Below are positions 654 to 51,380 of a DNA stretch of 51,620 nucleotides, in pieces. The number at the start of each line of letters is the position of its first letter. Position 1 is the stretch's first letter. The DNA is from Candidatus Levyibacteriota bacterium (GTDB lineage Bacteria; Patescibacteriota; Microgenomatia; Levybacterales; GWA1-39-11): positions 1 to 51,620 of the forward strand of contig JBCLLY010000001.1 of NCBI GenBank assembly GCA_039738415.1, given 5' to 3'. The notes beneath the pieces are model-generated. The model ran no database searches and was not told the origin of the DNA. It worked only from the letters and a program-made list of their open reading frames with translations. Position numbers and translations under genes: made by a program.

Positions 654-2771
654 CTAGTCCTGAACTATGTAGCTTATCTCAACTGCGCTAAATCCTTTTC
701 TTTCAATTTTTTCAAACTGGGGAGGATGATTGTTATCAGAAATAGCTCCACTGTCATTTATGAAAAACACTATATTTGTGTAAGAGTCAGGCTCTGGGGT
801 TATAAATAACGGAAGCAGTTTTTTGGATATTTGGTTTGAGAAATGTGAAATAAATATTCTGCTTGATTTGGTTTCTGATTTGATATATTTAATAAAATCA
901 TAAGTTTCCTTTTCATTCATACCAAGATTATTTGCATAATTTTTTAATTCATTATCTAAATTCATTCTATTTATGATTATTCCTCTTAACGGAAGAGCGT
1001 AATTTGAAGCTAAATCATAATCAAATTCTAATGATAAATATTTTGCTCCCCCTATCTCAATTCCACCGTCCCCCGTTAAAGTACCTGAGAAACCTGTCAA
1101 GGGACTATAGGAGGCATTAGTGTTTGAAACAGTAGTCCCAACGCTAATATTTACATCCATTCCTTTTTGACCATATAGATAAAGTGGACTATTGGAACAC
1201 CCTGCGGATTTTGCTGCCGAAAATTGCTCCTTAAAACACGCATCAAAAGTCTCGTTCTGAGTTCCGGCTTTAGCCTGACTGCCAGTAAAATCAGCTCCTA
1301 AAAGCTCATTGCACGCGGCAGAAGCAACATCTCTGCATCTTTCACCGCTCTGCTGCTCCACACGCTTTGGCTCAAGTGTAGGCTTTATGGTAAATGTTTG
1401 TAGCTGAAGCTGCTCCTTTGTTTTACCCTTTATGCCTCCGCTGTCTGTGTCTGAACTAGAAGAAAAAAGCACCATAGAGTCACCAAAATATGAAGATGGC
1501 TTTACTGCAATTGACTGAACAAAACCACCCATAATATCCAAAGAAACTATATCATTCTCATTTTCGTTATAAATATAGACCCCATCCAAAACTTGCTCAT
1601 AAGAACTACCCAAATTTCCCAAAGTACTTTTTGTAGTAGTAATACTGCCAACCAGCAAGACTCCTGGACTAAGCACAGCTAGAGTTTTTTTGGGACTTTT
1701 TGAAATAGATTCTAAATCATTAAGCATAATCTTATCAAACAAACTCGAGGGTAAGTTATAAGAATAAGTACCTGTTTGATCTACATTTGTAGATACCATA
1801 GAAAATAGAACATTTCCATTAGTCTCATCCCACCAGGCATTTGCATAATAGTTTTCATTTGACAAATTCGAAAGTCTTCTGCGACTCAAGGTATTCAACT
1901 CCAAAACATCTACAGTATTTGCAGATAAAATAGCGCGTCTAACATCACGGACAATCTCGGTACCCGCCCCTTTACTACCATCGTATCCTGTAAACACTAG
2001 CATATTGCCGTCTGGAGATAAAACAGGCTGTGAACCATAAGTTCCGTTACTAACCGCTACCAAATCTTGAATATTAGCACCCGTTATGTCAGCTACGCTC
2101 ATCCCATATGCCCACCCTGCGCTATCATTAGTCAGGAATAGATCCATGAATACTTTGCCTTCATTTGTAACCGCCACAGGATAATGTACCGGCGCATTTG
2201 CAACCTCGCTATAAATCTGGTTTTTAACACCCGTATTTATATTTGCTCCATAAACTCTGGATATACCATTGTAAAGCTGTACAGAATCAGGAGGGAGAGC
2301 AACCTCCCATGTGGCTATATATTGCCCATCAGGAGATACACGATAATCATCTATTTTTACATCTTCATTTGCCTGTAAGACGACCCTTTCCTGTCCATCT
2401 GGAATTGTCTTTACAACTATACTTGCCCCATAGTCATTTTCATCTGTTTCATTAATATAAATAATTTCATTTGATGAAAGTAGTCTCACATGCTTTACAT
2501 TAAGAGGAAGTGTTGCGAGGAGAATCTCTTTACCCGTAGCAAGATCCAGGCTTTTTACTTCACTTTTATCTCCCGCCCAATAAGCATATACAAACACATT
2601 TGGAGATGAAAAACGAGTATCGGCAACTTCATCAATTACTTTCACTTCATCATTCGTGGAGGTTATAACCGCAGCCCCAACTGCTATACCAAGACCTGCT
2701 AAAATTAAAAGGCCAATCAAAAAACCTCGCATATTCTGTCTGGGATTAACAAGGGAAATGTATTTATCCAT
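654..2771 (-). CDS. membrane-anchored protein with TolB/PD40-like beta-propeller repeats; function unknown
   Basis: 705-aa ORF. N-terminal hydrophobic anchor (FLIGLLILAGLGIAVGAAVI), SPDG-type blade motifs (SPDGQYIA, SPDGNMLVF), and a Cys-containing C-terminal domain. Confidence 0.8.
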   Translation of the reverse strand: MDKYISLVNPRQNMRGFLIGLLILAGLGIAVGAAVITSTNDEVKVIDEVADTRFSSPNVFVYAYWAGDKSEVKSLDLATGKEILLATLPLNVKHVRLLSSNEIIYINETDENDYGASIVVKTIPDGQERVVLQANEDVKIDDYRVSPDGQYIATWEVALPPDSVQLYNGISRVYGANINTGVKNQIYSEVANAPVHYPVAVTNEGKVFMDLFLTNDSAGWAYGMSVADITGANIQDLVAVSNGTYGSQPVLSPDGNMLVFTGYDGSKGAGTEIVRDVRRAILSANTVDVLELNTLSRRRLSNLSNENYYANAWWDETNGNVLFSMVSTNVDQTGTYSYNLPSSLFDKIMLNDLESISKSPKKTLAVLSPGVLLVGSITTTKSTLGNLGSSYEQVLDGVYIYNENENDIVSLDIMGGFVQSIAVKPSSYFGDSMVLFSSSSDTDSGGIKGKTKEQLQLQTFTIKPTLEPKRVEQQSGERCRDVASAACNELLGADFTGSQAKAGTQNETFDACFKEQFSAAKSAGCSNSPLYLYGQKGMDVNISVGTTVSNTNASYSPLTGFSGTLTGDGGIEIGGAKYLSLEFDYDLASNYALPLRGIIINRMNLDNELKNYANNLGMNEKETYDFIKYIKSETKSSRIFISHFSNQISKKLLPLFITPEPDSYTNIVFFINDSGAISDNNHPPQFEKIERKGFSAVEISYIVQD

Positions 2772-2843
2772 AAATTTATAATAGAGGATTTATATCAGGC
2801 TTGTCAATCTTTTTTGAACTTGCCTCGGGGGAATTAGGTAAAA

Positions 2844-2955
2844 TGGTGGGTGATCTTGGGATCGAACCCCACACATCTTGCCGTTCGCCTTTATGCACTA
2901 TTCGTGCACGGCTCACGGAGCGATTTGTGCGGGGCAGGCCAAGTACCTGTTCTTA
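2844..2955 (-). pseudogene. tRNA-like 3' fragment whose T-loop is split by a 72-nt insert
   Basis: Minus strand reads TAAGAACAGGTA-CTTGG-[72 nt]-TTCGATC-CCAAG-ATCACCC-A-CCA, i.e. anticodon-stem 3' strand, variable loop, T-arm, acceptor 3' strand and an encoded CCA. CTTGG/CCAAG pair across the insert. No matching 5' half lies adjacent. Confidence 0.5.
2867..2938 (-). ncRNA. unassigned conserved hairpin motif, copy 1 (RNA or folded ssDNA)
   Basis: CCTGCCCCGCACAAATCGCTCCGTGAGCCGTGCACGAATAGTGCATAAAGGCGAACGGCAAGATGTGTGGGG. Shares identical blocks of 15 and 11 nt and the same fold with 51271-51339. Compensatory changes occur in two helices. Confidence 0.45.
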
Positions 2956-2972
2956 CCGTGCCCTCCGCCTCC

Positions 2973-3098
2973 GGGCTGCAAACTGTTGTGGGCTGCCTAG
3001 GAATCGAACCTAGTACCTCTTTCTTACCGTGCCCGACTGCCACGGGGCTGCAAACTGTTGTGGGCTGCCTAGGAATCGAACCTAGTACCTCTTTCTTA
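2973..3098 (-). repeat. two exact 54-nt direct repeats (2973-3026 and 3045-3098, period 72 nt)
   Basis: Each repeat equals tRNA-Ile positions 36-73 plus 16 nt of 3' trailer. Character-by-character comparison of the two stretches. The upper copy is part of the intact tRNA-Ile gene. Confidence 0.95.
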
Positions 3099-3132
3099 TC
3101 AGGAAAGCGTTCTACCAATGAACTAGCAGCCC
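3061..3132 (-). tRNA. tRNA-Ile (anticodon GAU), no encoded CCA
   Basis: GGGCTGC-TA-GTTC-ATTGGTA-GAAC-G-CTTTC-CTGATAA-GAAAG-AGGTA-CTAGG-TTCGATT-CCTAG-GCAGCCC-A folds into a perfect 72-nt cloverleaf. Confidence 0.95.
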
Positions 3133-3150
3133 AATTTTAAATTTACGCGC

Positions 3151-3250
3151 CCTGCCTGTAACGCTTGCTTAGCATAGCGGGCAGGTCTACTACTGTCCGA
3201 TGAGCGATTGATGTCGCTATCGGACTCCGATCTTCTCTGAAGCATCGGAG
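3151..3250 (-). repeat. three consecutive GC-rich hairpins upstream of tRNA-Ile
   Basis: Hairpins at 3151-3185 (CCTGCC...GGCAGG), 3196-3224 (TCCGAT...ATCGGA) and 3225-3250 (CTCCGAT...ATCGGAG). TCCGAT/ATCGGA-type hairpins recur at 6663-6685 and 7033-7052. Confidence 0.6.
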
Positions 3251-3410
3251 AGCCAATCACCCAGATAACTAACAAATGATAACGAATTTCATAAACTAGC
3301 TACTAATATCTAACAACTAATAACTAGACTGTTATTTTACTAAAGATCGGGTGTTCAAACAAGAGAAACAAAACGTTGCGTCATATAAAATGAAATAATA
3401 TACTCACATA

Positions 3411-4871
3411 GTGAGCAATCATTCATTCAGTATTTTTAAGTTTGTCAAAAAAAACCTTCTTATAGTTTTTATAATTACTACGTCACTAATCTTTGACGTA
3501 CTGATATCATTGGATATTTTCGAGGGACTACGCGGACCAAATGATTTAATACTCGAATCCAGGTGGCCATATTATTTTGTAAATACTATGGATAAATTTT
3601 GGGCGCCTCTAAGTATTTTTGCGGTCTTATTATCTTTATACTACTTTGCCACAAAAACAAAACTAAGTCGAAAAAAGGAAATTTTTTTTCTTTTTGCATT
3701 TGTAGTTTCAAGTTTTGCATTTCAAATAGCCCTAGTCTATTTTAGTAGATTTGATATACCTGTTCTGTTCCGAAGAACCGTAGATCCTGGAATCAATGGA
3801 TATTTTTCAAGCGCAACAAAAATAGAAAGTGTTTCTGGGTTTGTTACAAATTATGAGGATGAATTTCCCATACTAGATAACCATGGAAGAGGTCACCCGC
3901 CTGGAGGAGTTATCGTTCTTAAGTGGATAATACAGTTTTTTGATTCAAATGAGAAAATCACCAACATATTTACTTCCTACATAAGACCCCCAAATAATGA
4001 TGGGATCTCCCTATGGAAACAGTTAACGTCTTCAGAACGCGCCGCTGCAATATTTAGCGCCTTCTTCTTGCACCTTCTAGCATCCTTAACTATCATACCG
4101 CTATACTACCTAACGAAAAAAATATTTAGTTCAAAAGCTGCTATTAAAAATATTGTCCTGCTGATTCTGACCCCAAGCTTTGCCTTCTTTGCTTTATTTT
4201 TTGACCCATTTTACGCAGTTTTTCCTATTTTAGTCGGATTATTATTAACCCATTCTTATAAAGAAAAAAGTGGTGTTTACGCTTTCATTGCATCGTTATT
4301 ATCGCTCGTTGGTTTGTTTTTCACCATATCCATTCTACCCGCATTAATACTGGTTTTTGTAATTTGGACGTTGTTTTTAATAAAAAAAAGGAAGGTTTGG
4401 TCGGGAGAATTTATGACGGGTGTTAGCGGAATGTTAGCTGGAATAACTTTTATGTATTTGATGGGATACGACTTCATAAATGTATCTTATCTAGTAATTA
4501 GAAATCAAATGCCTCGTGAATACCTAGCGTGGGTTTTTTATAACCCTTATGATTTCTTCATTTATTTGGGAGTGCCATCCGCGATTTTATTTATCTATAT
4601 AACGGTTGGCATCATTAGAAAAACTCTTGAATTTAAAGTTCAAACTGTTTCCGTCATTTGTTTTTGGATAATATTTGTGGGACTGACAATTTCGGGTGCA
4701 AGTCGCGGAGAAGTGGGAAGGATATGGATACCGCTTATGATGTTGCCAATTTTTCTTTCAGGAGATTTTTTGCAAAATAAAATTAAATCTGAAAAACTAT
4801 TTATAGCAATAGTAACCCTATTGTTTATTCAGATAATTGTGATGCAGGAATTCTGGGTTTCTATTTGGTAA
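3411..4871 (+). CDS. polytopic membrane protein, possibly a GT-C (ArnT/PMT-like) glycosyltransferase
   Basis: 486-aa ORF with a GTG start and about a dozen hydrophobic segments. The functional call rests on architecture only. Confidence 0.7.
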   Translation: MSNHSFSIFKFVKKNLLIVFIITTSLIFDVLISLDIFEGLRGPNDLILESRWPYYFVNTMDKFWAPLSIFAVLLSLYYFATKTKLSRKKEIFFLFAFVVSSFAFQIALVYFSRFDIPVLFRRTVDPGINGYFSSATKIESVSGFVTNYEDEFPILDNHGRGHPPGGVIVLKWIIQFFDSNEKITNIFTSYIRPPNNDGISLWKQLTSSERAAAIFSAFFLHLLASLTIIPLYYLTKKIFSSKAAIKNIVLLILTPSFAFFALFFDPFYAVFPILVGLLLTHSYKEKSGVYAFIASLLSLVGLFFTISILPALILVFVIWTLFLIKKRKVWSGEFMTGVSGMLAGITFMYLMGYDFINVSYLVIRNQMPREYLAWVFYNPYDFFIYLGVPSAILFIYITVGIIRKTLEFKVQTVSVICFWIIFVGLTISGASRGEVGRIWIPLMMLPIFLSGDFLQNKIKSEKLFIAIVTLLFIQIIVMQEFWVSIW

Positions 4872-4932
4872 CAAATACGAAGACCGATTTGTGTTATTGA
4901 AGGAATAAAAAAGTTTTTTTTCAAGTGTATTA

Positions 4933-4958
4933 AAAAGATGTTTGAAAAGTGGTAGGAA
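4933..4958 (-). promoter_or_regulatory. 16S 3'-trailer half of the pre-rRNA processing stem
   Basis: AAAAGATGTTTGAAAAGTGGTAGGAA is the reverse complement of 6763-6788 except for one position, which gives a G-U pair in the RNA. Confidence 0.75.
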
Positions 4959-5029
4959 GAACTAATAAAAATTAGTCCTCCCAATCTTGAAATTTCTTTC
5001 AAGACGTACTGGAAGAGAGTTTTTATTAG

Positions 5030-6483
<1,454 letters not shown>

Positions 6484-22352: not shown

Positions 22353-23274
22353 AAGCGTGTATGGCGGAACGCCAACATGTGCGTATAATTCATCATCACT
22401 AACACTTATTCAAACAAGCGCATCACCCGGAACCTATAAATGCAGCGTAGGGGCGCTTGGAAGTCCAGACACTTGCACAACCCAACCGGTAGGCACATCT
22501 TCAATCTGTACTGTTTCATCTGCACCATCACCAGAGCCAACTGCGACTCCTACTGCGACCAGGACTCCAACTCCAACTCCCACTCCCACCCGCACACCTA
22601 CTCCTACCGCAACTAGGACGCCTACCCCAACCGTAACTCCCGGTGCACCTACTCCCACTAGGACGCCTACTCCAACCCTTGGTGCGGGAGAAGCAGGGTT
22701 GAGCCTTACTGTAAATCTTCCCGGAATTGCCTCAAATGCACCGGTTGCGGGTCAGGGATTAAGTAAAAACACCGAGAGCCCTATCAGAACAAGCAGGGGA
22801 GTTGAAGTAAAGCTTCAGTCATCGGATGGAACCGATGTAACAAACTTTTCATCAAAATCAAACGCTAGTGGTATAGTTCCCGGAACTTTAGTATTTGACC
22901 CGGTTACGTTTACATATAAAGGAACTGTTAATATGGGCAACACTCCTACCGGAAGTTATATTGTTCAAATTAGATTTGATAATACTCTTTATTCAAATGC
23001 GCCAGGGTTTCACTCTGTAACCAACGGACAAACAAAAATAATACCTAACTTAAAGCTCATATCGGGAGATATCGATAGAAACGCAAACAGTAACGACATA
23101 CTTACCGTAGACGACTACAATTTGCTTGTAGCTTGTATATTTAAAAAGCCAATCTGCACTCCTCAGGCAAAAATAAGAGCTGATCTTAATGATAATGGTG
23201 GTGATATAGATTCAACAGATTTAACTCTATTAAGAAAAGCTTTTTTTGAAAGGCAAGGAGCATCAGTTCAATAA
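22303..23274 (+). CDS. C-terminal part of the same protein: PT-rich linker plus dockerin-like module
   Basis: TPTATRTPTPTPTPTRTPTPT linker. Two dockerin-type segments: GDIDRNANSNDILTVDDYNLL and ADLNDNGGDIDSTDLTLLRKA. Confidence 0.7.
   Translation: MQIFTLSWGGAMTTNCRSVYGGTPTCAYNSSSLTLIQTSASPGTYKCSVGALGSPDTCTTQPVGTSSICTVSSAPSPEPTATPTATRTPTPTPTPTRTPTPTATRTPTPTVTPGAPTPTRTPTPTLGAGEAGLSLTVNLPGIASNAPVAGQGLSKNTESPIRTSRGVEVKLQSSDGTDVTNFSSKSNASGIVPGTLVFDPVTFTYKGTVNMGNTPTGSYIVQIRFDNTLYSNAPGFHSVTNGQTKIIPNLKLISGDIDRNANSNDILTVDDYNLLVACIFKKPICTPQAKIRADLNDNGGDIDSTDLTLLRKAFFERQGASVQ
22325..22333 (+). repeat. homopolymeric G9 tract
   Basis: Counted in tcgtGGGGGGGGGcaat. Eight Gs would fuse 21747-22352 to 22303-23274 in one frame. 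Confidence 0.95.
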
Positions 23275-23454
23275 ACCCTGCCCGCAATGTTCCCGTAAAT
23301 ATCCGACACTCTACCTTTCCAAACGGGTAGCTGATTCAGTATATGAACGCGATAGGATGAAGGATTGGCTTGAATTTCCCGAACACCATATAATTGCGGC
23401 TGAAGTGCGCGGCGGAAGTGCTACTCAATTTATCGGGGCTGCTTAATACAATAT

Positions 23455-24534
23455 TTAACTATAGATCTCCCACTTTCCGCTGTTATTTCTGAGGACATTC
23501 CTTAATTCCAAATCCGACAGATAAACCATCAGCTTTCCGATAGGAATTTTTGTTTTTCTGGAAATTATATCAATTGCCAGTGATTCGTTTTCCAGAACCT
23601 TATAGATTTTCTTTTCTTCTTTACTTAATTTTAAATTTACAATTTTGTTTTTGTTTTTAGTTTTAGGTTTTAAGTTTAATTCACTCAAAATCTCCCCCAC
23701 GCTTCCTACCGCAACTGCTCCCTCTTTGAACAAACCATTTGTTCCCTTTGAAAGACTGGAAGTTATTGGACCGGGAATTGAAAAAACTTTTCTGCCCTGA
23801 GAAAACGCTTCTTTTGCAGTTATAAGTGCACCGCTATCTGAGGTTGCTTCAGGAATTAAAATAGCATCTGACAAAGCGCTAATTATTCTATTTCTTGCTG
23901 GAAAACTTCCCTTATTTGGAATCATTCCCAAAGGAAATTCTGATACCACCGCACCACCATTTTTAATAATTTCGTTGTACAAACCCCAATGCTCGCCGGG
24001 AGTAGGTAAATCCACACCCGAGCCAAGAACCGCAATTGTTTTTCCTTTATGTTTCAAGCAAGTTTTATGCGCTATACCATCAATTCCCATTGCCATTCCC
24101 GAAACAATCACAAATCCTACATCGACAAAATCGCGGGTGAAACTTTCAGTTACGGTTACCCCATAGCTTGTGGGACGGCGTGAGCCGACTATACCGATAG
24201 AATTTTTTTCAAATATTAAGCTTTTGTCTCCACGACCGTATAAAACAATCGGGGGATTGGAGATAGTTTTTAGTTTTTCCGGAAACTGCGCGTATGTAAT
24301 TACCCAAATATTTTTATTTTTGATTTCCAGTAAAATTTTATTCAAGTCAAATTCACTTTTAAATTTAAGATATTTTTCTAAATTCTTTCCTTTAAATCCT
24401 GCATTAATTAATTCTTTTTCTGAAGCGTTGTAAATTTTCTCCGCAGTTTTAAATTTATCTAATAATTTTACTAAAGTTTTGGGACCAATCCCTATAGAGT
24501 AAGAAAAGAAAACATAATAGTCCGTCTCACTCAT
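23455..24534 (-). CDS. dprA: DNA-processing protein DprA/Smf
   Basis: GSRRPTSYG and VSGMAMGIDGIAH motifs, plus a C-terminal winged-helix-like tail. Confidence 0.9.
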   Translation of the reverse strand: MSETDYYVFFSYSIGIGPKTLVKLLDKFKTAEKIYNASEKELINAGFKGKNLEKYLKFKSEFDLNKILLEIKNKNIWVITYAQFPEKLKTISNPPIVLYGRGDKSLIFEKNSIGIVGSRRPTSYGVTVTESFTRDFVDVGFVIVSGMAMGIDGIAHKTCLKHKGKTIAVLGSGVDLPTPGEHWGLYNEIIKNGGAVVSEFPLGMIPNKGSFPARNRIISALSDAILIPEATSDSGALITAKEAFSQGRKVFSIPGPITSSLSKGTNGLFKEGAVAVGSVGEILSELNLKPKTKNKNKIVNLKLSKEEKKIYKVLENESLAIDIISRKTKIPIGKLMVYLSDLELRNVLRNNSGKWEIYS

Positions 24535-26413: not shown

Positions 26414-27205
26414 ATGGAACCTATAAATAACACTCTTCAAGGAAATTTTCCGCCAGAAAATCCTGTTAGCACGGATATTCAAGCAAATCAATCTACCCAA
26501 ACCCACCCAACAAATACTACAAAAAGAAATAATCTAGGAAAAATAATAAGCATCATAATTATTCTAATTTTATTATCTGTATCTGGAGTTGCCGGATATT
26601 TTATTTATAAAAATTTAAATCAATCAAACCCTGAACAAGTCGCTTGCACTATGGAGGCGATGATTTGTCCTGATGGAAGTAGTGTGGGGAGAAGCGGTCC
26701 CAACTGTGAATTTGCTCCTTGTCCAAAATCAGAATCAACCTCAACACCTGATACCTGGCAAACCAAGTCCATCTCCCAAATAAGTCTTTCGTTTAAATAT
26801 CCACAGGACTGGGAAGAAAAAAAGACAGCTACAGGAGGAGTTGTATTGATAGGGCCCAAAGATAATGAAACTACTTGGATTGGCATCAATGATTCAACTT
26901 ATATAAATCTTGGCGATACTCCAGAAAAATTATCTGAGCAAGCGCTTGGGAATGAAACCCCAACGGGAAAAAAACAAATAACGATAGATGGACATAATGC
27001 TGTTTACCAAGAAAGGCGCTATCTAAATAGTGCAAGAATTGAAGTTTACATTGGAGAGGTGAAACAAATGACTAACTTTGCAGAAGGACCTAGATTAACA
27101 AACGGAACCCAAAGTGTTTTCATGGAGATCAAAGACTTAAGCGAACTGGATTCAAGTAGAAAAATTTTCGACCAAATCCTCTCCACCTTTCAGTTTACTA
27201 ACTGA
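26414..27205 (+). CDS. membrane-anchored surface-protein family member (C-terminal ILSTFQFTN)
   Basis: 263 aa: polar N-terminus, one TM (IISIIIILILLSVSGVAGYFIY), extracytoplasmic domain, family C-terminal motif. Confidence 0.8.
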   Translation: MEPINNTLQGNFPPENPVSTDIQANQSTQTHPTNTTKRNNLGKIISIIIILILLSVSGVAGYFIYKNLNQSNPEQVACTMEAMICPDGSSVGRSGPNCEFAPCPKSESTSTPDTWQTKSISQISLSFKYPQDWEEKKTATGGVVLIGPKDNETTWIGINDSTYINLGDTPEKLSEQALGNETPTGKKQITIDGHNAVYQERRYLNSARIEVYIGEVKQMTNFAEGPRLTNGTQSVFMEIKDLSELDSSRKIFDQILSTFQFTN

Positions 27206-27254
27206 CCCGCCAAAGATCGCTCTTCAAGTCGTGTTCGAATAGAACTGAAAAGAC

Positions 27255-27443
27255 TTGAAGCAAGATCAGGAGGGCAAATTCACTGATCAACGACCACCTG
27301 GTGGACAATATTCAACCGAAGGACAATCTTGTGGGAAAAATGCTGGAGCTGCAGGAGATGCACAATGTGAACCAAGCCTTACCTGTGTATACCAAAGCGA
27401 GGAGGCAATACAAAATAAGATAGGTACCTGTCTTAAAAAGTAA
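27255..27443 (+). CDS. possible small Cys-rich peptide (4 Cys); coding status uncertain
   Basis: 62-codon ORF with a TTG start and no Shine-Dalgarno. An identical copy at 30670-30837 lacks any start codon. Confidence 0.25.
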   Translation: MKQDQEGKFTDQRPPGGQYSTEGQSCGKNAGAAGDAQCEPSLTCVYQSEEAIQNKIGTCLKK

Positions 27444-50349: not shown

Positions 50350-51231
50350 CTAATCCAACCGGAGTTCTTTCAGGAATTTCCTAAATTCTCCATTTAACGC
50401 AGGGTGCTGGAGGGCAAATTCGACTACTGTCTTCATATATTCAAGTTTTGACCCCGTATCATAGTACTTTCCATTCTCTATCTCTACTCCATACACGGGC
50501 ACACCTTCATCACGAAGTTTATTTATCGCATCAATCAGCCAAATCTCCCCGCCTTTTCCGGGTCCAATATTTTTTAATGCTCCAAAAATTTCAGGCGGTA
50601 AAATATACGCTCCATGCGTTGCCATATTCGACGGAGCATGCTCGGGATCAGGCTTCTCAACAATTTCTTTAATTCTAAAAACATTACCTTCAACTGTTTC
50701 GATATCAGCAATTCCATAGCGCTTGAGGTCTTCTTTGTTCTCTATCCTTACACCGGAAATAACTATTCCTCCGTACTTGTCGTATACATCAATCATTTGC
50801 TTCAAGCGCGCGGGCTTTGAATAAATAAATTCATCTCCCCAAAGAACTGCAAATGGTTCGTTTTCTATTACCGGTTCTGCCGCCAAAACAGGTGTTCCAT
50901 TTCCATACGGACCTTTTTGTCTAACATAAATAAAATTTGCCAACTCTGAAATCTTTTGTACTTCCTTAAGCATTTCTTCTTTTCCACCGTCTTTAAGATT
51001 TTTCACTAAATCTTGATTTAGAACGTCGAAATGATCCTCTATGGCACGCTTTAGCGCACCCGTAACAATAATAATATCTTCAATTCCGGATTCAACCGCC
51101 TCTTCAACTACGTATTGGATAACCGGTTTATCAACTACAGGAAGCATTTCTTTGGGCATGGCCTTTGTTTGGGGGAGAAACCGGGTTCCAAAACCAGCAG
51201 CGGGAATTACAGCTTTACGGATTTTAGTCAT
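50350..51231 (-). CDS. galU: UTP--glucose-1-phosphate uridylyltransferase
   Basis: VIPAAGFGTRFLPQTKAMPKEMLPVVDKP motif; a GGAGGG Shine-Dalgarno 7 nt upstream of the ATG. Confidence 0.93.
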   Translation of the reverse strand: MTKIRKAVIPAAGFGTRFLPQTKAMPKEMLPVVDKPVIQYVVEEAVESGIEDIIIVTGALKRAIEDHFDVLNQDLVKNLKDGGKEEMLKEVQKISELANFIYVRQKGPYGNGTPVLAAEPVIENEPFAVLWGDEFIYSKPARLKQMIDVYDKYGGIVISGVRIENKEDLKRYGIADIETVEGNVFRIKEIVEKPDPEHAPSNMATHGAYILPPEIFGALKNIGPGKGGEIWLIDAINKLRDEGVPVYGVEIENGKYYDTGSKLEYMKTVVEFALQHPALNGEFRKFLKELRLD

Positions 51232-51380
51232 ATAAACCCTCCGAATTAATACTATCTATAAAAACAGCTCGCCCGCCAGTAATTGCTCCGTGAGCCGTGT
51301 ATGAATAATACTTTAAGGCGAACGGGAAAATGCGGCGGGAACCAGCAGCGGGAATTACAGCTTTACGGATTTTAGTCATA
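51192..51380. repeat. 41-nt exact direct repeat (51192-51232 and 51340-51380) bracketing a 107-nt insert
   Basis: Each repeat is the galU start (1 nt upstream of the ATG plus the first 40 nt of the CDS). Compared base by base; offset 148. Confidence 0.95.
51271..51339 (+). ncRNA. unassigned conserved hairpin motif, copy 2
   Basis: GCCCGCCAGTAATTGCTCCGTGAGCCGTGTATGAATAATACTTTAAGGCGAACGGGAAAATGCGGCGGG; same fold as 2867-2938. Confidence 0.45.

Follow-up and report, generated by a model that had tools for sequence, protein, structure and literature searches.

What is the 420-nt block on the minus strand at positions 3263-2844 of contig JBCLLY010000001.1 from Candidatus Levyibacteriota bacterium: an isoleucine transfer RNA (tRNA-Ile) gene followed by stray fragments, or a tRNA gene that was broken open and now has other sequence lodged inside it? 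The question arose from a sequence-only reading of positions 1 to 51,620 of this contig (51,620 nt, hereafter the window), which described an intact tRNA-Ile, a tandem copy of its 3' part and a third 3' end, split in two. All its statements about the sequence of the block hold on re-reading, save the length of an inverted repeat, and its interpretation is partly supported. Comparison with related loci indicates that the outermost pieces of the block are the orthologous resident tRNA-Ile, broken open, with all else sitting inside; the intact tRNA is a separate inserted gene, nested in the anticodon loop of the resident one.

Outer pieces and inner gene

The comparison of the tRNA-Ile locus in sister genomes, which the sequence-only reading had proposed as a check, covered 17 related loci (denoted L001 and so forth; about 156 kb of relatives, plus the window) on contigs found via the 705-amino-acid (aa) protein encoded just downstream of the block (2771-654). 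Homologues of this protein are 58-79% identical, and the sources of its distant homologues are labelled Levybacteria or Saccharimonadales, from which the organism is probably one of the candidate phyla radiation (CPR). Most relatives have at this locus one ordinary tRNA-Ile(GAU), placed downstream of a promoter-like box and between the 16S ribosomal RNA (rRNA) gene and, downstream of it, the 705-aa homologue. These resident genes are of two types, GGGTCGT... in most relatives and GGGTGCA... in L001, the closest full-length relative (73%). The outer pieces of the window read, in order, GGGTGATTGGCTC, CAGTAGTAGA, GCGCG, TAAGAACAGGTACTTGG and TTCGATCCCAAGATCACCCA. When joined, they are colinear with the tRNA-Ile of L001 and identical to it at 56 of 65 positions, with a single 7-nt gap: the next 7 nt of the outer gene after GCGCG (TTCCTGA, nt 29-35) are missing from the window. 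Because of this colinearity, we regard the block as an opened resident gene and not as a tRNA accompanied by fragments.

Within the block, ARAGORN and Rfam call one tRNA only, the tRNA-Ile(GAU) at 3132-3061 (minus strand; 67.5 bits, Rfam threshold 29), as had been expected from its sequence. The intact genes of the comparison, inner as well as simple, all fold as cloverleaves, with 10 of 21 pairs compensatory and none broken in the inner genes; since the cloverleaf is kept through compensatory changes, the inner genes look functional. That of the window combines the cloverleaf, the GAU anticodon, the Rfam score and compensatory stems, and is presumably a functional gene. Inner and outer genes differ from one another by whole compensated stems. 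The outer gene of L009 shares 70 of 73 positions with the functional gene of L002, and it is the inner genes that diverge more. The parts of the locus, in the order of the minus strand, are the following.

3333-3345, minus: promoter-like box CTTTAGTAAAATA, with a -10 TAAAAT at 3339-3334; core conserved in relatives.
3302-3326, minus: leader with degenerate heptad repeats, to which Tandem Repeats Finder assigns 3.6 copies of period 7.
3250-3262, minus: outer tRNA-Ile, namely the 5' strand of the acceptor stem (GGGTGAT), nt 8-9 and the 5' strand of the D-stem (GCTC); L011 has an identical outer piece, and the stretch is colinear with L001.
3196-3249, minus: insertion at the D-stem/D-loop boundary, two hairpins with a shared 6-bp stem TCCGAT/ATCGGA (sequence reading and fold).
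3186-3195, minus: outer D-loop remnant CAGTAGTAGA (CAGTGGTAGA in L001), from the alignment of the concatenated pieces with L001.
3151-3185, minus: F1 hairpin element CCTGCCCGC...CAGGCAGG, 35 nt, at the 3' end of the outer D-loop; aligns with the F1 inserts of relatives.
3146-3150, minus: outer remnant GCGCG, covering the last part of the D-stem 3' strand, nt 26 and two bases that open the anticodon stem (L001 alignment).
3133-3145, minus: AT-rich 13 nt standing where outer nt 29-35 and the start (5' end) of the anticodon-loop insert would be (against L011, L009 and L012).
3061-3132, minus: inner intact tRNA-Ile(GAU) (ARAGORN; Rfam, 67.5 bits); cloverleaf kept relative to the inner genes of L011 and L009.
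3027-3060, minus: trailer and 3' end of the inner insert, ...GTCGGGCACGG; homologous to ...GTCGGGCGCGG in L011 and ...GCGGGCAGG in L012.
2973-3026, minus: stranded 3' half (nt 36-73) of an intermediate tRNA-Ile with the 16-nt trailer; 100% identical to the inner gene.
2956-2972, minus: spacer ending GGGCACGG, the 3' end of an older insert (sequence reading).
2939-2955, minus: outer tRNA-Ile nt 36-53, with what remains of the anticodon loop, then the 3' strand of the stem, the variable loop and T-stem CTTGG; colinear with L001.
2867-2938, minus: 72-nt rod hairpin element between outer T-loop nt 53 and 54 (covariance model R1).
2844-2866, minus: outer T-loop, T-stem CCAAG, acceptor ATCACCC, A73, then CCA; pairs with 3262-3256 in the fold.

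The block is 50-54% GC against 39% for the window, and folds far better than shuffled sequence (minimum-free-energy fold, z = -6.2), its ends being paired in the fold. The inverted repeat noticed earlier at its boundaries is real, its arms being the two strands of one acceptor stem, but the 11-13 nt given for it was overstated: the exact match is 8 nt (TGGGTGAT / ATCACCCA, the 7-bp acceptor stem plus one base), beyond which TTGG/CCAA pairs past a 2-nt bulge (GA). This repeat is absent from the repeat-finder list, though the fold pairs both ends. The CCA encoded at the outer 3' end is probably due to chance, because the relatives' genes vary at that position.

The 54-nt segment made up of tRNA nt 36-73 and the 16-nt trailer recurs exactly, 3098-3045 being equal to 3026-2973 at an offset of 72 nt downstream, and Tandem Repeats Finder accordingly gives the block a period of 72 with 2.2 copies. 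The third 3' part consists of TAAGAACAGGTACTTGG (2955-2939), the 72-nt insert (2938-2867) and TTCGATCCCAAGATCACCCA with CCA (2866-2844), the stretch after the insert being TTCGATCCCAAGATCACCCACCA; CTTGG is complementary to CCAAG across the insert. Both features had been correctly described from the sequence, as had the breakpoints, which fall in the anticodon loop (35/36) and in the T-loop (53/54). The three GC-rich hairpins ahead of the intact tRNA are also present, but are actually D-loop insertions with remnants of the D-arm (CAGTAGTAGA, GCGCG) between them. At the site of the two TCCGAT hairpins L011 holds a different GC-rich hairpin, set between GGCTC and CAG. As for the junctions on the 3' side, ...GGGCACGG stands immediately 5' of each TAAG in the window and marks an insert 3' end, and GTCGGGCGCGG in L011 and GCGGGCAGG in L012 are each likewise immediately 5' of TAAG. 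Where the window has its AT-rich 13 nt, L011, L009 and L012 retain CCTGA directly followed by CCCRCCYGCC.

A 12-15-nt core of the promoter-like box is found upstream of the tRNA-Ile in every relative locus that includes the upstream region, in most of them in the CTTTAGTAAAATA form. A consensus promoter scan made no call on the box CTTTAGTAAAATA, whose -35 is weak, and no terminator was found between the box (3345-3333) and 2844. The conserved box probably drives a single transcript spanning the whole block. A second promoter-like site, GTTACA-17-TAAAAT at 3162-3134, arose via the AT-rich 13 nt and ends 1 nt ahead of the inner tRNA; its function is doubtful, because it is too near the tRNA for a normal leader.

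Several other identities were considered for the block and rejected. A transfer-messenger RNA (tmRNA) or other large tRNA-ended RNA does not agree with pair 3-70, which is G3-C70, nor with ends that are colinear with tRNA-Ile, and ARAGORN and Rfam report none. A giant tRNA, with the three hairpins as its D arm, anticodon arm and T arm, was dropped because D-loop remnants lie between them. For a group I intron, Rfam gives no match in 2500-5100 (E <= 10) or, with the gathering threshold, in the window as a whole. Two open reading frames (ORFs) cross the block, at 2850-3140 (plus strand, 96 aa) and 2891-3118 (minus strand, 75 aa), with the repeated peptide KEVLGSIPRQPTTVCSP; they are by-products of repeated tRNA sequence and not genes.

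Nesting in other lineages and at tRNA-Cys

Judged from the alignments, four or more other lineages share the nested architecture. They are interspersed with relatives that have plain genes, and the architecture is found again at their tRNA-Cys locus. Nested tRNA-Ile loci are those of L011/L010, L009 and L012, and in part L017, with inserts at the D-loop, at 35/36 and at the T-loop. The composite of L010 is identical to that of L011 over 2957 nt, the two coming from different metagenomes. L011 starts with an outer 5' piece identical to that of the window, the other D-arm GC-rich hairpin and outer nt about 14-35 ending CCTGA; these are followed by CCCGCCCGCC..., the whole inner tRNA-Ile, ...GTCGGGCGCGG, a 3' half of a third type and a degenerate outer 3' part. 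The L011 counterpart of the window's stranded 3' half has a different sequence, with acceptor strand GATGCCC. In L009 the outer gene is interrupted by a 36-nt D-loop hairpin and a T-loop insert of 20-22 nt, and the insert after A35 holds a complete inner tRNA-Ile of the GGGCGCG type. L012 matches this arrangement from the anticodon stem onward and has a clean junction, in which CCTGA is joined to CCCGCCTGCC on one side and GCATTGCGGGCAGG to TAAG on the other. The T-loop insert, 22 nt, is identical between L009 and L012 despite differing outer flanks, and the insert end of L012 is complementary over 14 nt to an arm of the L009 D-loop F1. In L017 the T-loop of the second 3' part is replaced by about 64 nt.

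The tRNA-Cys(GCA) locus of L010 (3395-3120, minus strand) repeats this plan at another gene. The outer 5' part runs to G34 and is followed by an insert with inverted ends TCCCAGCAC/GTGCGGGA that encloses a whole inner tRNA-Cys; after it comes the outer 3' part, with F1 in its T-loop and an acceptor strand that pairs with the outer 5' strand. The outer tRNA-Cys type of the composites is the type still intact in L001. Partial nesting of tRNA-Cys is seen in L007 (7698-7910), L013 (5892-6101), L012 (3346-3475) and L019 (5491-5547), the form in L012 being the simple one of an intact gene, 17 nt and a 3' half. A terminator-like hairpin lies upstream of the inner gene of the L010 tRNA-Cys locus.

By their neighbour protein, the composites compared each lie nearer to a relative with a simple gene than to another composite. 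The window is 73% identical in this protein to L001, which has a simple gene, and 63% to the composite L011; likewise, L012 is 76% identical to the simple L002 and 63% to the composite L009. The outer gene of each composite matches the local resident type. This scattered distribution is suggestive, although only suggestive, of repeated gain or of lateral spread of a composite allele.

The F1 and rod hairpins

Two families of small hairpins occupy the outer gene of the window. Copies of F1 without cargo are found in the tRNA-Ile D-loop of the window, in the D-loop of L009 and in the T-loop of the dead tRNA-Cys of L010, and they align mutually, being few and much alike. Reverse-complemented, the F1 ends, CCTGCCCGC...GCAGGCGGG, give the ends of the insert in the anticodon loop of L012, between which lies a whole inner tRNA; by this alignment F1 occurs in both orientations, with or without a tRNA inside. 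The insert ends are mutually complementary (CCCGCCTGC...GCGGGCAGG). The sites known for F1 are thus of three kinds: the tRNA-Ile D-loop (window, L009), the tRNA-Cys T-loop (L010) and the tRNA-Ile anticodon loop (L012, L009).

The second family, the rod, was searched with a covariance model, R1, built from the T-loop insert and the copy at 51268-51340. Three copies occur in the window (51 kb), at 2938-2866, 27202-27275 and 51268-51340. All three fold as a rod-like hairpin, whose internal loop (GA/GA) is symmetric and whose end loop is GAAUA. Pairing holds in 98% of cells and 10 of 20 pairs show compensatory change, a result that none of 500 shuffles matched, so that the stem has been kept by such change, as in repetitive extragenic palindromic (REP) sequences or miniature inverted-repeat transposable elements (MITEs). 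As in such elements too, rod and F1 alike have several copies with conserved ends at unrelated sites. No Rfam family matches the rod, the R1 search found no copy in the 17 related loci, and a scan of IMG/VR for the rod core pattern gave 0 matches. Its contexts in the window are a dead tRNA, a position directly after a stop codon, and one antisense and upstream of a GalU-like gene; because they are so varied, the rod fits better as a REP/MITE-like DNA element than as a dedicated RNA.

The rod at 51268-51340 (plus strand) lies between exact 41-nt direct repeats (51192-51232 and 51340-51380), whose sequence is that of the beginning of the GalU-like gene (50350-51231, minus strand), from its start codon through the first 40 nt. 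A ribosome-binding site, GGAGGG, precedes the copy next to the gene, which leaves a stranded pseudo-start upstream of the rod. This arrangement looks like a protein-gene analogue of an insertion with a duplicated, function-restoring piece. The rod at 27202-27275 is more divergent (49.9 bits) and begins at the stop codon of ORF 26414-27205; past it there is coding-like sequence for a cysteine-rich peptide, with no start codon. Elsewhere in the window, 23274-23450 is a GC-richer stretch of about 180 nt between convergent genes (dockerin-like and DprA-like), which starts with CCTGCCCGCAATG, 13 nt equal to the F1 start of L009 and L012, and includes an ORF of 66 aa without Pfam match; the stretch may be either a longer F1 relative or a chance match. 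The DprA gene, recognised by eye in the translated ORF 23455-24534, would be in keeping with DNA uptake and replacement of alleles.

Origin of the nested locus

How did one tRNA gene come to lie within another? We consider it reasonably probable that the block is a layered fossil, in which the resident tRNA-Ile was split by a GC-rich insertion carrying a tRNA, the nesting was repeated, and hairpins were added later. The resident gene (GGGTGAT/ATCACCC) would have been split at nt 35/36 by a short GC-rich insertion with complementary ends. The insertion would have brought with it a complete tRNA-Ile(GAU) of different sequence, this cargo replacing the function destroyed. At least two nested rounds in the line leading to the window and L011 would account for the inner gene, the intermediate 3' half and both original halves. 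In the window, gene conversion would later have brought 54 nt of the stranded 3' half into full agreement with the inner gene; it best explains this identity, because the homologous 3' half of L011 has a different sequence. The intermediate 5' half would have been lost, probably via recombination between directly repeated 5' halves. Free from selection, the dead outer gene may then have gained the two TCCGAT hairpins and a cargo-less F1 in its D-loop and the rod in its T-loop, and nt 29-35 would have disappeared from it as well. At present, transcription of the entire block probably starts at the conserved upstream promoter, and the inner tRNA would be freed by RNase P and 3' processing, with the remainder serving as leader and trailer.

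Among the options listed in the sequence-only reading, a tiny non-autonomous element is the one that fits best. We infer that both hairpin families, F1 and the rod, are or once were mobile DNA, moved in trans with a preference for tRNA loops, and that in a live gene only insertions carrying a cognate tRNA would survive; the order of events given above is of the same standing. All insertions seen fall in loops or at loop boundaries of the cloverleaf, and this suggests that structure guided the insertion, hairpins extruded in single-stranded DNA being one example of a target. A bolder and more tentative proposal, which we hold possible but would not favour, is that bacteria of the CPR harbour undescribed miniature cassettes that target tRNA loops, carry a cognate tRNA as self-rescuing cargo and have serially replaced tRNA-Ile and tRNA-Cys genes. 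If so, these would be 'selfish tRNA genes' that kill and replace the resident, the dead shell becoming a landing pad for cargo-less hairpins.

Several observations weigh against the layered insertion history and the mobility it implies. F1 occurs only at tRNA loci in the sample of about 156 kb plus the window, and calling it mobile rests on five or six sites. Neither a target-site duplication nor a common target sequence, as expected of a MITE, was found at the F1 flanks. The F1 copies in the D-loops of the window and L009 sit 2 nt apart, and could reflect one old event followed by recombination and not two insertions. No transposase, integrase or reverse transcriptase was found by Pfam in 33 of 47 window ORFs of at least 110 aa, nor was an autonomous element with F1 or insert ends found in the window and the about 156 kb of relatives. 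The scatter of composites could in part be due to allele transfer by homologous recombination, the neighbour-joining tree being rough and paralogues existing. At the outermost junction of L011, CCTGA stands on either side, which recalls a recombinase core, and the structure in the window rests on one assembly.

The nearest known parallel is provided by integrative elements, whose tDNA fragments (attL/attR, Islander-type) share with this locus an interrupted tRNA gene, restored function and displaced fragments that start in the anticodon loop or T-loop; such fragments can be stacked by repeated events (PMC4383910, PMC9897764). Accordingly, the block might consist of stacked att scars, as the sequence-only reading had suggested: tyrosine-integrase elements would have entered the anticodon loop of the tRNA-Ile repeatedly, each with a replacement 3' part, and their bodies would since have been deleted. 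The stranded fragments are indeed 3' parts running from the anticodon loop (nt 31-36) to the 3' end, the pattern of integrase targets described in PMC4383910 and PMC9897764 (the latter citing Williams 2002); in addition, L011 carries CCTGA at both outer junctions, L012 has its simple tRNA-Cys form, and the 54-nt repeat of the window, taken alone, fits a displaced 3' part. Yet nowhere has the outer 5' half been joined to a 3' half so as to regenerate the gene; it is retained and followed by non-tRNA GC-rich sequence, and a whole tRNA with its own matching 5' half, not a 3' part alone, lies within the anticodon loop in the window, L011, L009 and L012. The L012 insertion is clean, between A35 and T36 (CCTGA, insert, TAAG), with no repeated core, and the insert ends are short and mutually complementary. 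Random deletion would not leave, as is seen in five lineages and at two loci, a mere 4-34 nt between the pieces. No element body was found, and the absence of an integrase nearby, noted in the earlier reading, agrees with the Pfam search, which found none in the 33 of 47 window ORFs covered. The viral databases are equally silent: blastn of the block against phages gave no match, and in IMG/VR the inner tRNA D-arm type and the GGGCGCG-type 3' end had 0 matches each, while the 102 matches to the junction TCCTGACCCRCCYGCC, with 0 adjoining a tRNA-Ile, are taken as chance. In the classical sense, att scars are therefore unlikely.

Could the arrangement instead make sense at the level of RNA, another of the options first raised? 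The outer gene would then be a multi-intron pre-tRNA of archaeal kind that is spliced, or a split tRNA after RNase P and RNase Z have cut out the inner tRNA. All inserts are in loops or loop boundaries of the outer cloverleaf and never within stems, the ends of each can pair together right at the junction, and in both outer types the two acceptor strands pair without a mismatch. Archaeal disrupted tRNA genes are similar in having inserts at several loop positions and a stranded older 5' fragment beside a newer gene, and in the Caldiarchaeum model disruption of tRNA by a mobile element explains population heterogeneity (PMC3293823). That case, however, has a 1.8-kb element with a recombinase gene (PMC3293823), whereas here the host is a bacterium and the exons are incomplete: the window is without outer nt 29-35, which contradicts splicing there, L009 is without T36, and the outer T-arm of L011 is unpaired. 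At the junction checked, that of L012, there is no bulge-helix-bulge, CCCGCC being unable by inspection to pair with TAAGAC, and F1 occurs in both orientations. Protein-dependent tRNA splicing is not known in bacteria. Group I introns do occur in the anticodon loops of bacterial tRNAs, and an intron is present in a tmRNA T-loop, inserts at these two loops of bacterial tRNA-like genes being the shared feature; here, on the other hand, the Rfam search found no intron in the block, the inserts are hairpins of 35-72 nt or contain a tRNA, and the exons are incomplete. An RNA-level arrangement is highly improbable.

Three further explanations remain. A tandem triplication followed by decay, leaving only the 5' half of the first copy, only the 3' half of the last and a living gene in the middle, would give the period-72 repeat of the window and flanking halves that match as copies of one gene; but such decay predicts a conserved live gene and a divergent dead one, and the reverse is seen, the inner gene differing by compensated pairs and the dead outer gene being nearly identical to that of relatives (L009 and L002). 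As the insert ends are also defined and conserved across lineages with different outer genes, we find a triplication very hard to accept. The outer stem and hairpins might alternatively have been co-opted, now being kept as a leader and trailer that process, stabilise or regulate the inner tRNA transcript, like rRNA processing stems. The high GC content and strong fold of the block would suit this, as would the T-loop insert shared by L009 and L012 and the 14-nt complementarity between the L012 insert end and the L009 F1 arm. Most relatives, however, lack such structure, the outer parts decay differently by lineage, and among so few sequences no covariation of a long-range helix is demonstrable; co-option is improbable. 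Least credible is an assembly artefact or population chimera in this metagenome-assembled contig. The organism is uncultured, an exact look-up of two flanking-gene proteins gave no contig and so no second assembly, and repeats can be mis-joined; against this, the repeats (54 nt, period 72) are shorter than reads, and homologous composites occur in at least four other lineages, with L010 and L011 the same in two independent metagenomes.

REP sequences and bacterial interspersed mosaic elements (BIMEs), the Rickettsia palindromic elements, Correia/NEMIS and the GC clusters of yeast mitochondria are all small palindromic repeats. The rod and F1 resemble these families as GC-rich, noncoding, multicopy hairpins of 35-75 nt in an AT-rich genome, present in either orientation, after stop codons and inside genes, with stems that covary in the rod. 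They differ from them in that F1 is in tRNA loops only and one of its forms encloses a complete tRNA gene; moreover, no RAYT or IS200-type transposase was seen, and no GTAG-type end or target duplication was found. Literature searches returned no account of nested bacterial tRNA genes or of mini-inserts that carry a tRNA. That mobile DNA interrupts a tRNA gene and restores its function is already known; a whole gene nested inside another appears to be new, and we regard its significance as substantial but unproven.

tRNA genes are usually regarded as stable landmarks, exploited by mobile elements that take care to mend them. At this locus the old gene is mended by an entire new one nested within it, and this recurs in several lineages and at two tRNA loci, in genomes with probably one copy per tRNA. 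If the inserts are mobile, they would represent a new route of tRNA gene turnover and horizontal replacement, could explain the sharp acceptor and T-stem differences between close relatives in the same isoacceptor, and would constitute a family of structure-targeting mini-elements in a bacterial group whose mobile DNA is poorly known. On the practical side, nested loci yield spurious ORFs (75-96 aa here), and tRNA finders miss the dead halves and report the inner gene only.

Around the block, the window otherwise carries housekeeping genes. The bacterial 16S rRNA gene (6484-5030) has no 23S gene after it, and a 486-aa membrane-protein ORF without Pfam match (3411-4871, opposite strand) lies between it and the tRNA-Ile block; in several relatives the 16S gene is only about 190-230 nt from the tRNA-Ile. 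In L004 (780-1130), and also in L005 and L006, a 75-aa ORF stands between the tRNA-Ile and the 713-aa gene, and looks like a stranded C-terminal fragment of a paralogue of the 713-aa gene family. A second member of the 705-aa family is located directly downstream of the homologue in L001 and directly upstream of it in L017, L019 and L122. Finally, arrays of the heptad TGATTAG occur between the promoter-like box and the tRNA: L011 has about 30 copies over roughly 200 nt (2450-2650) before the tRNA-Ile, L012 has about 14 ahead of the tRNA-Cys (3250-3345), and the repeats at 3302-3326 of the window are a degenerate trace only.

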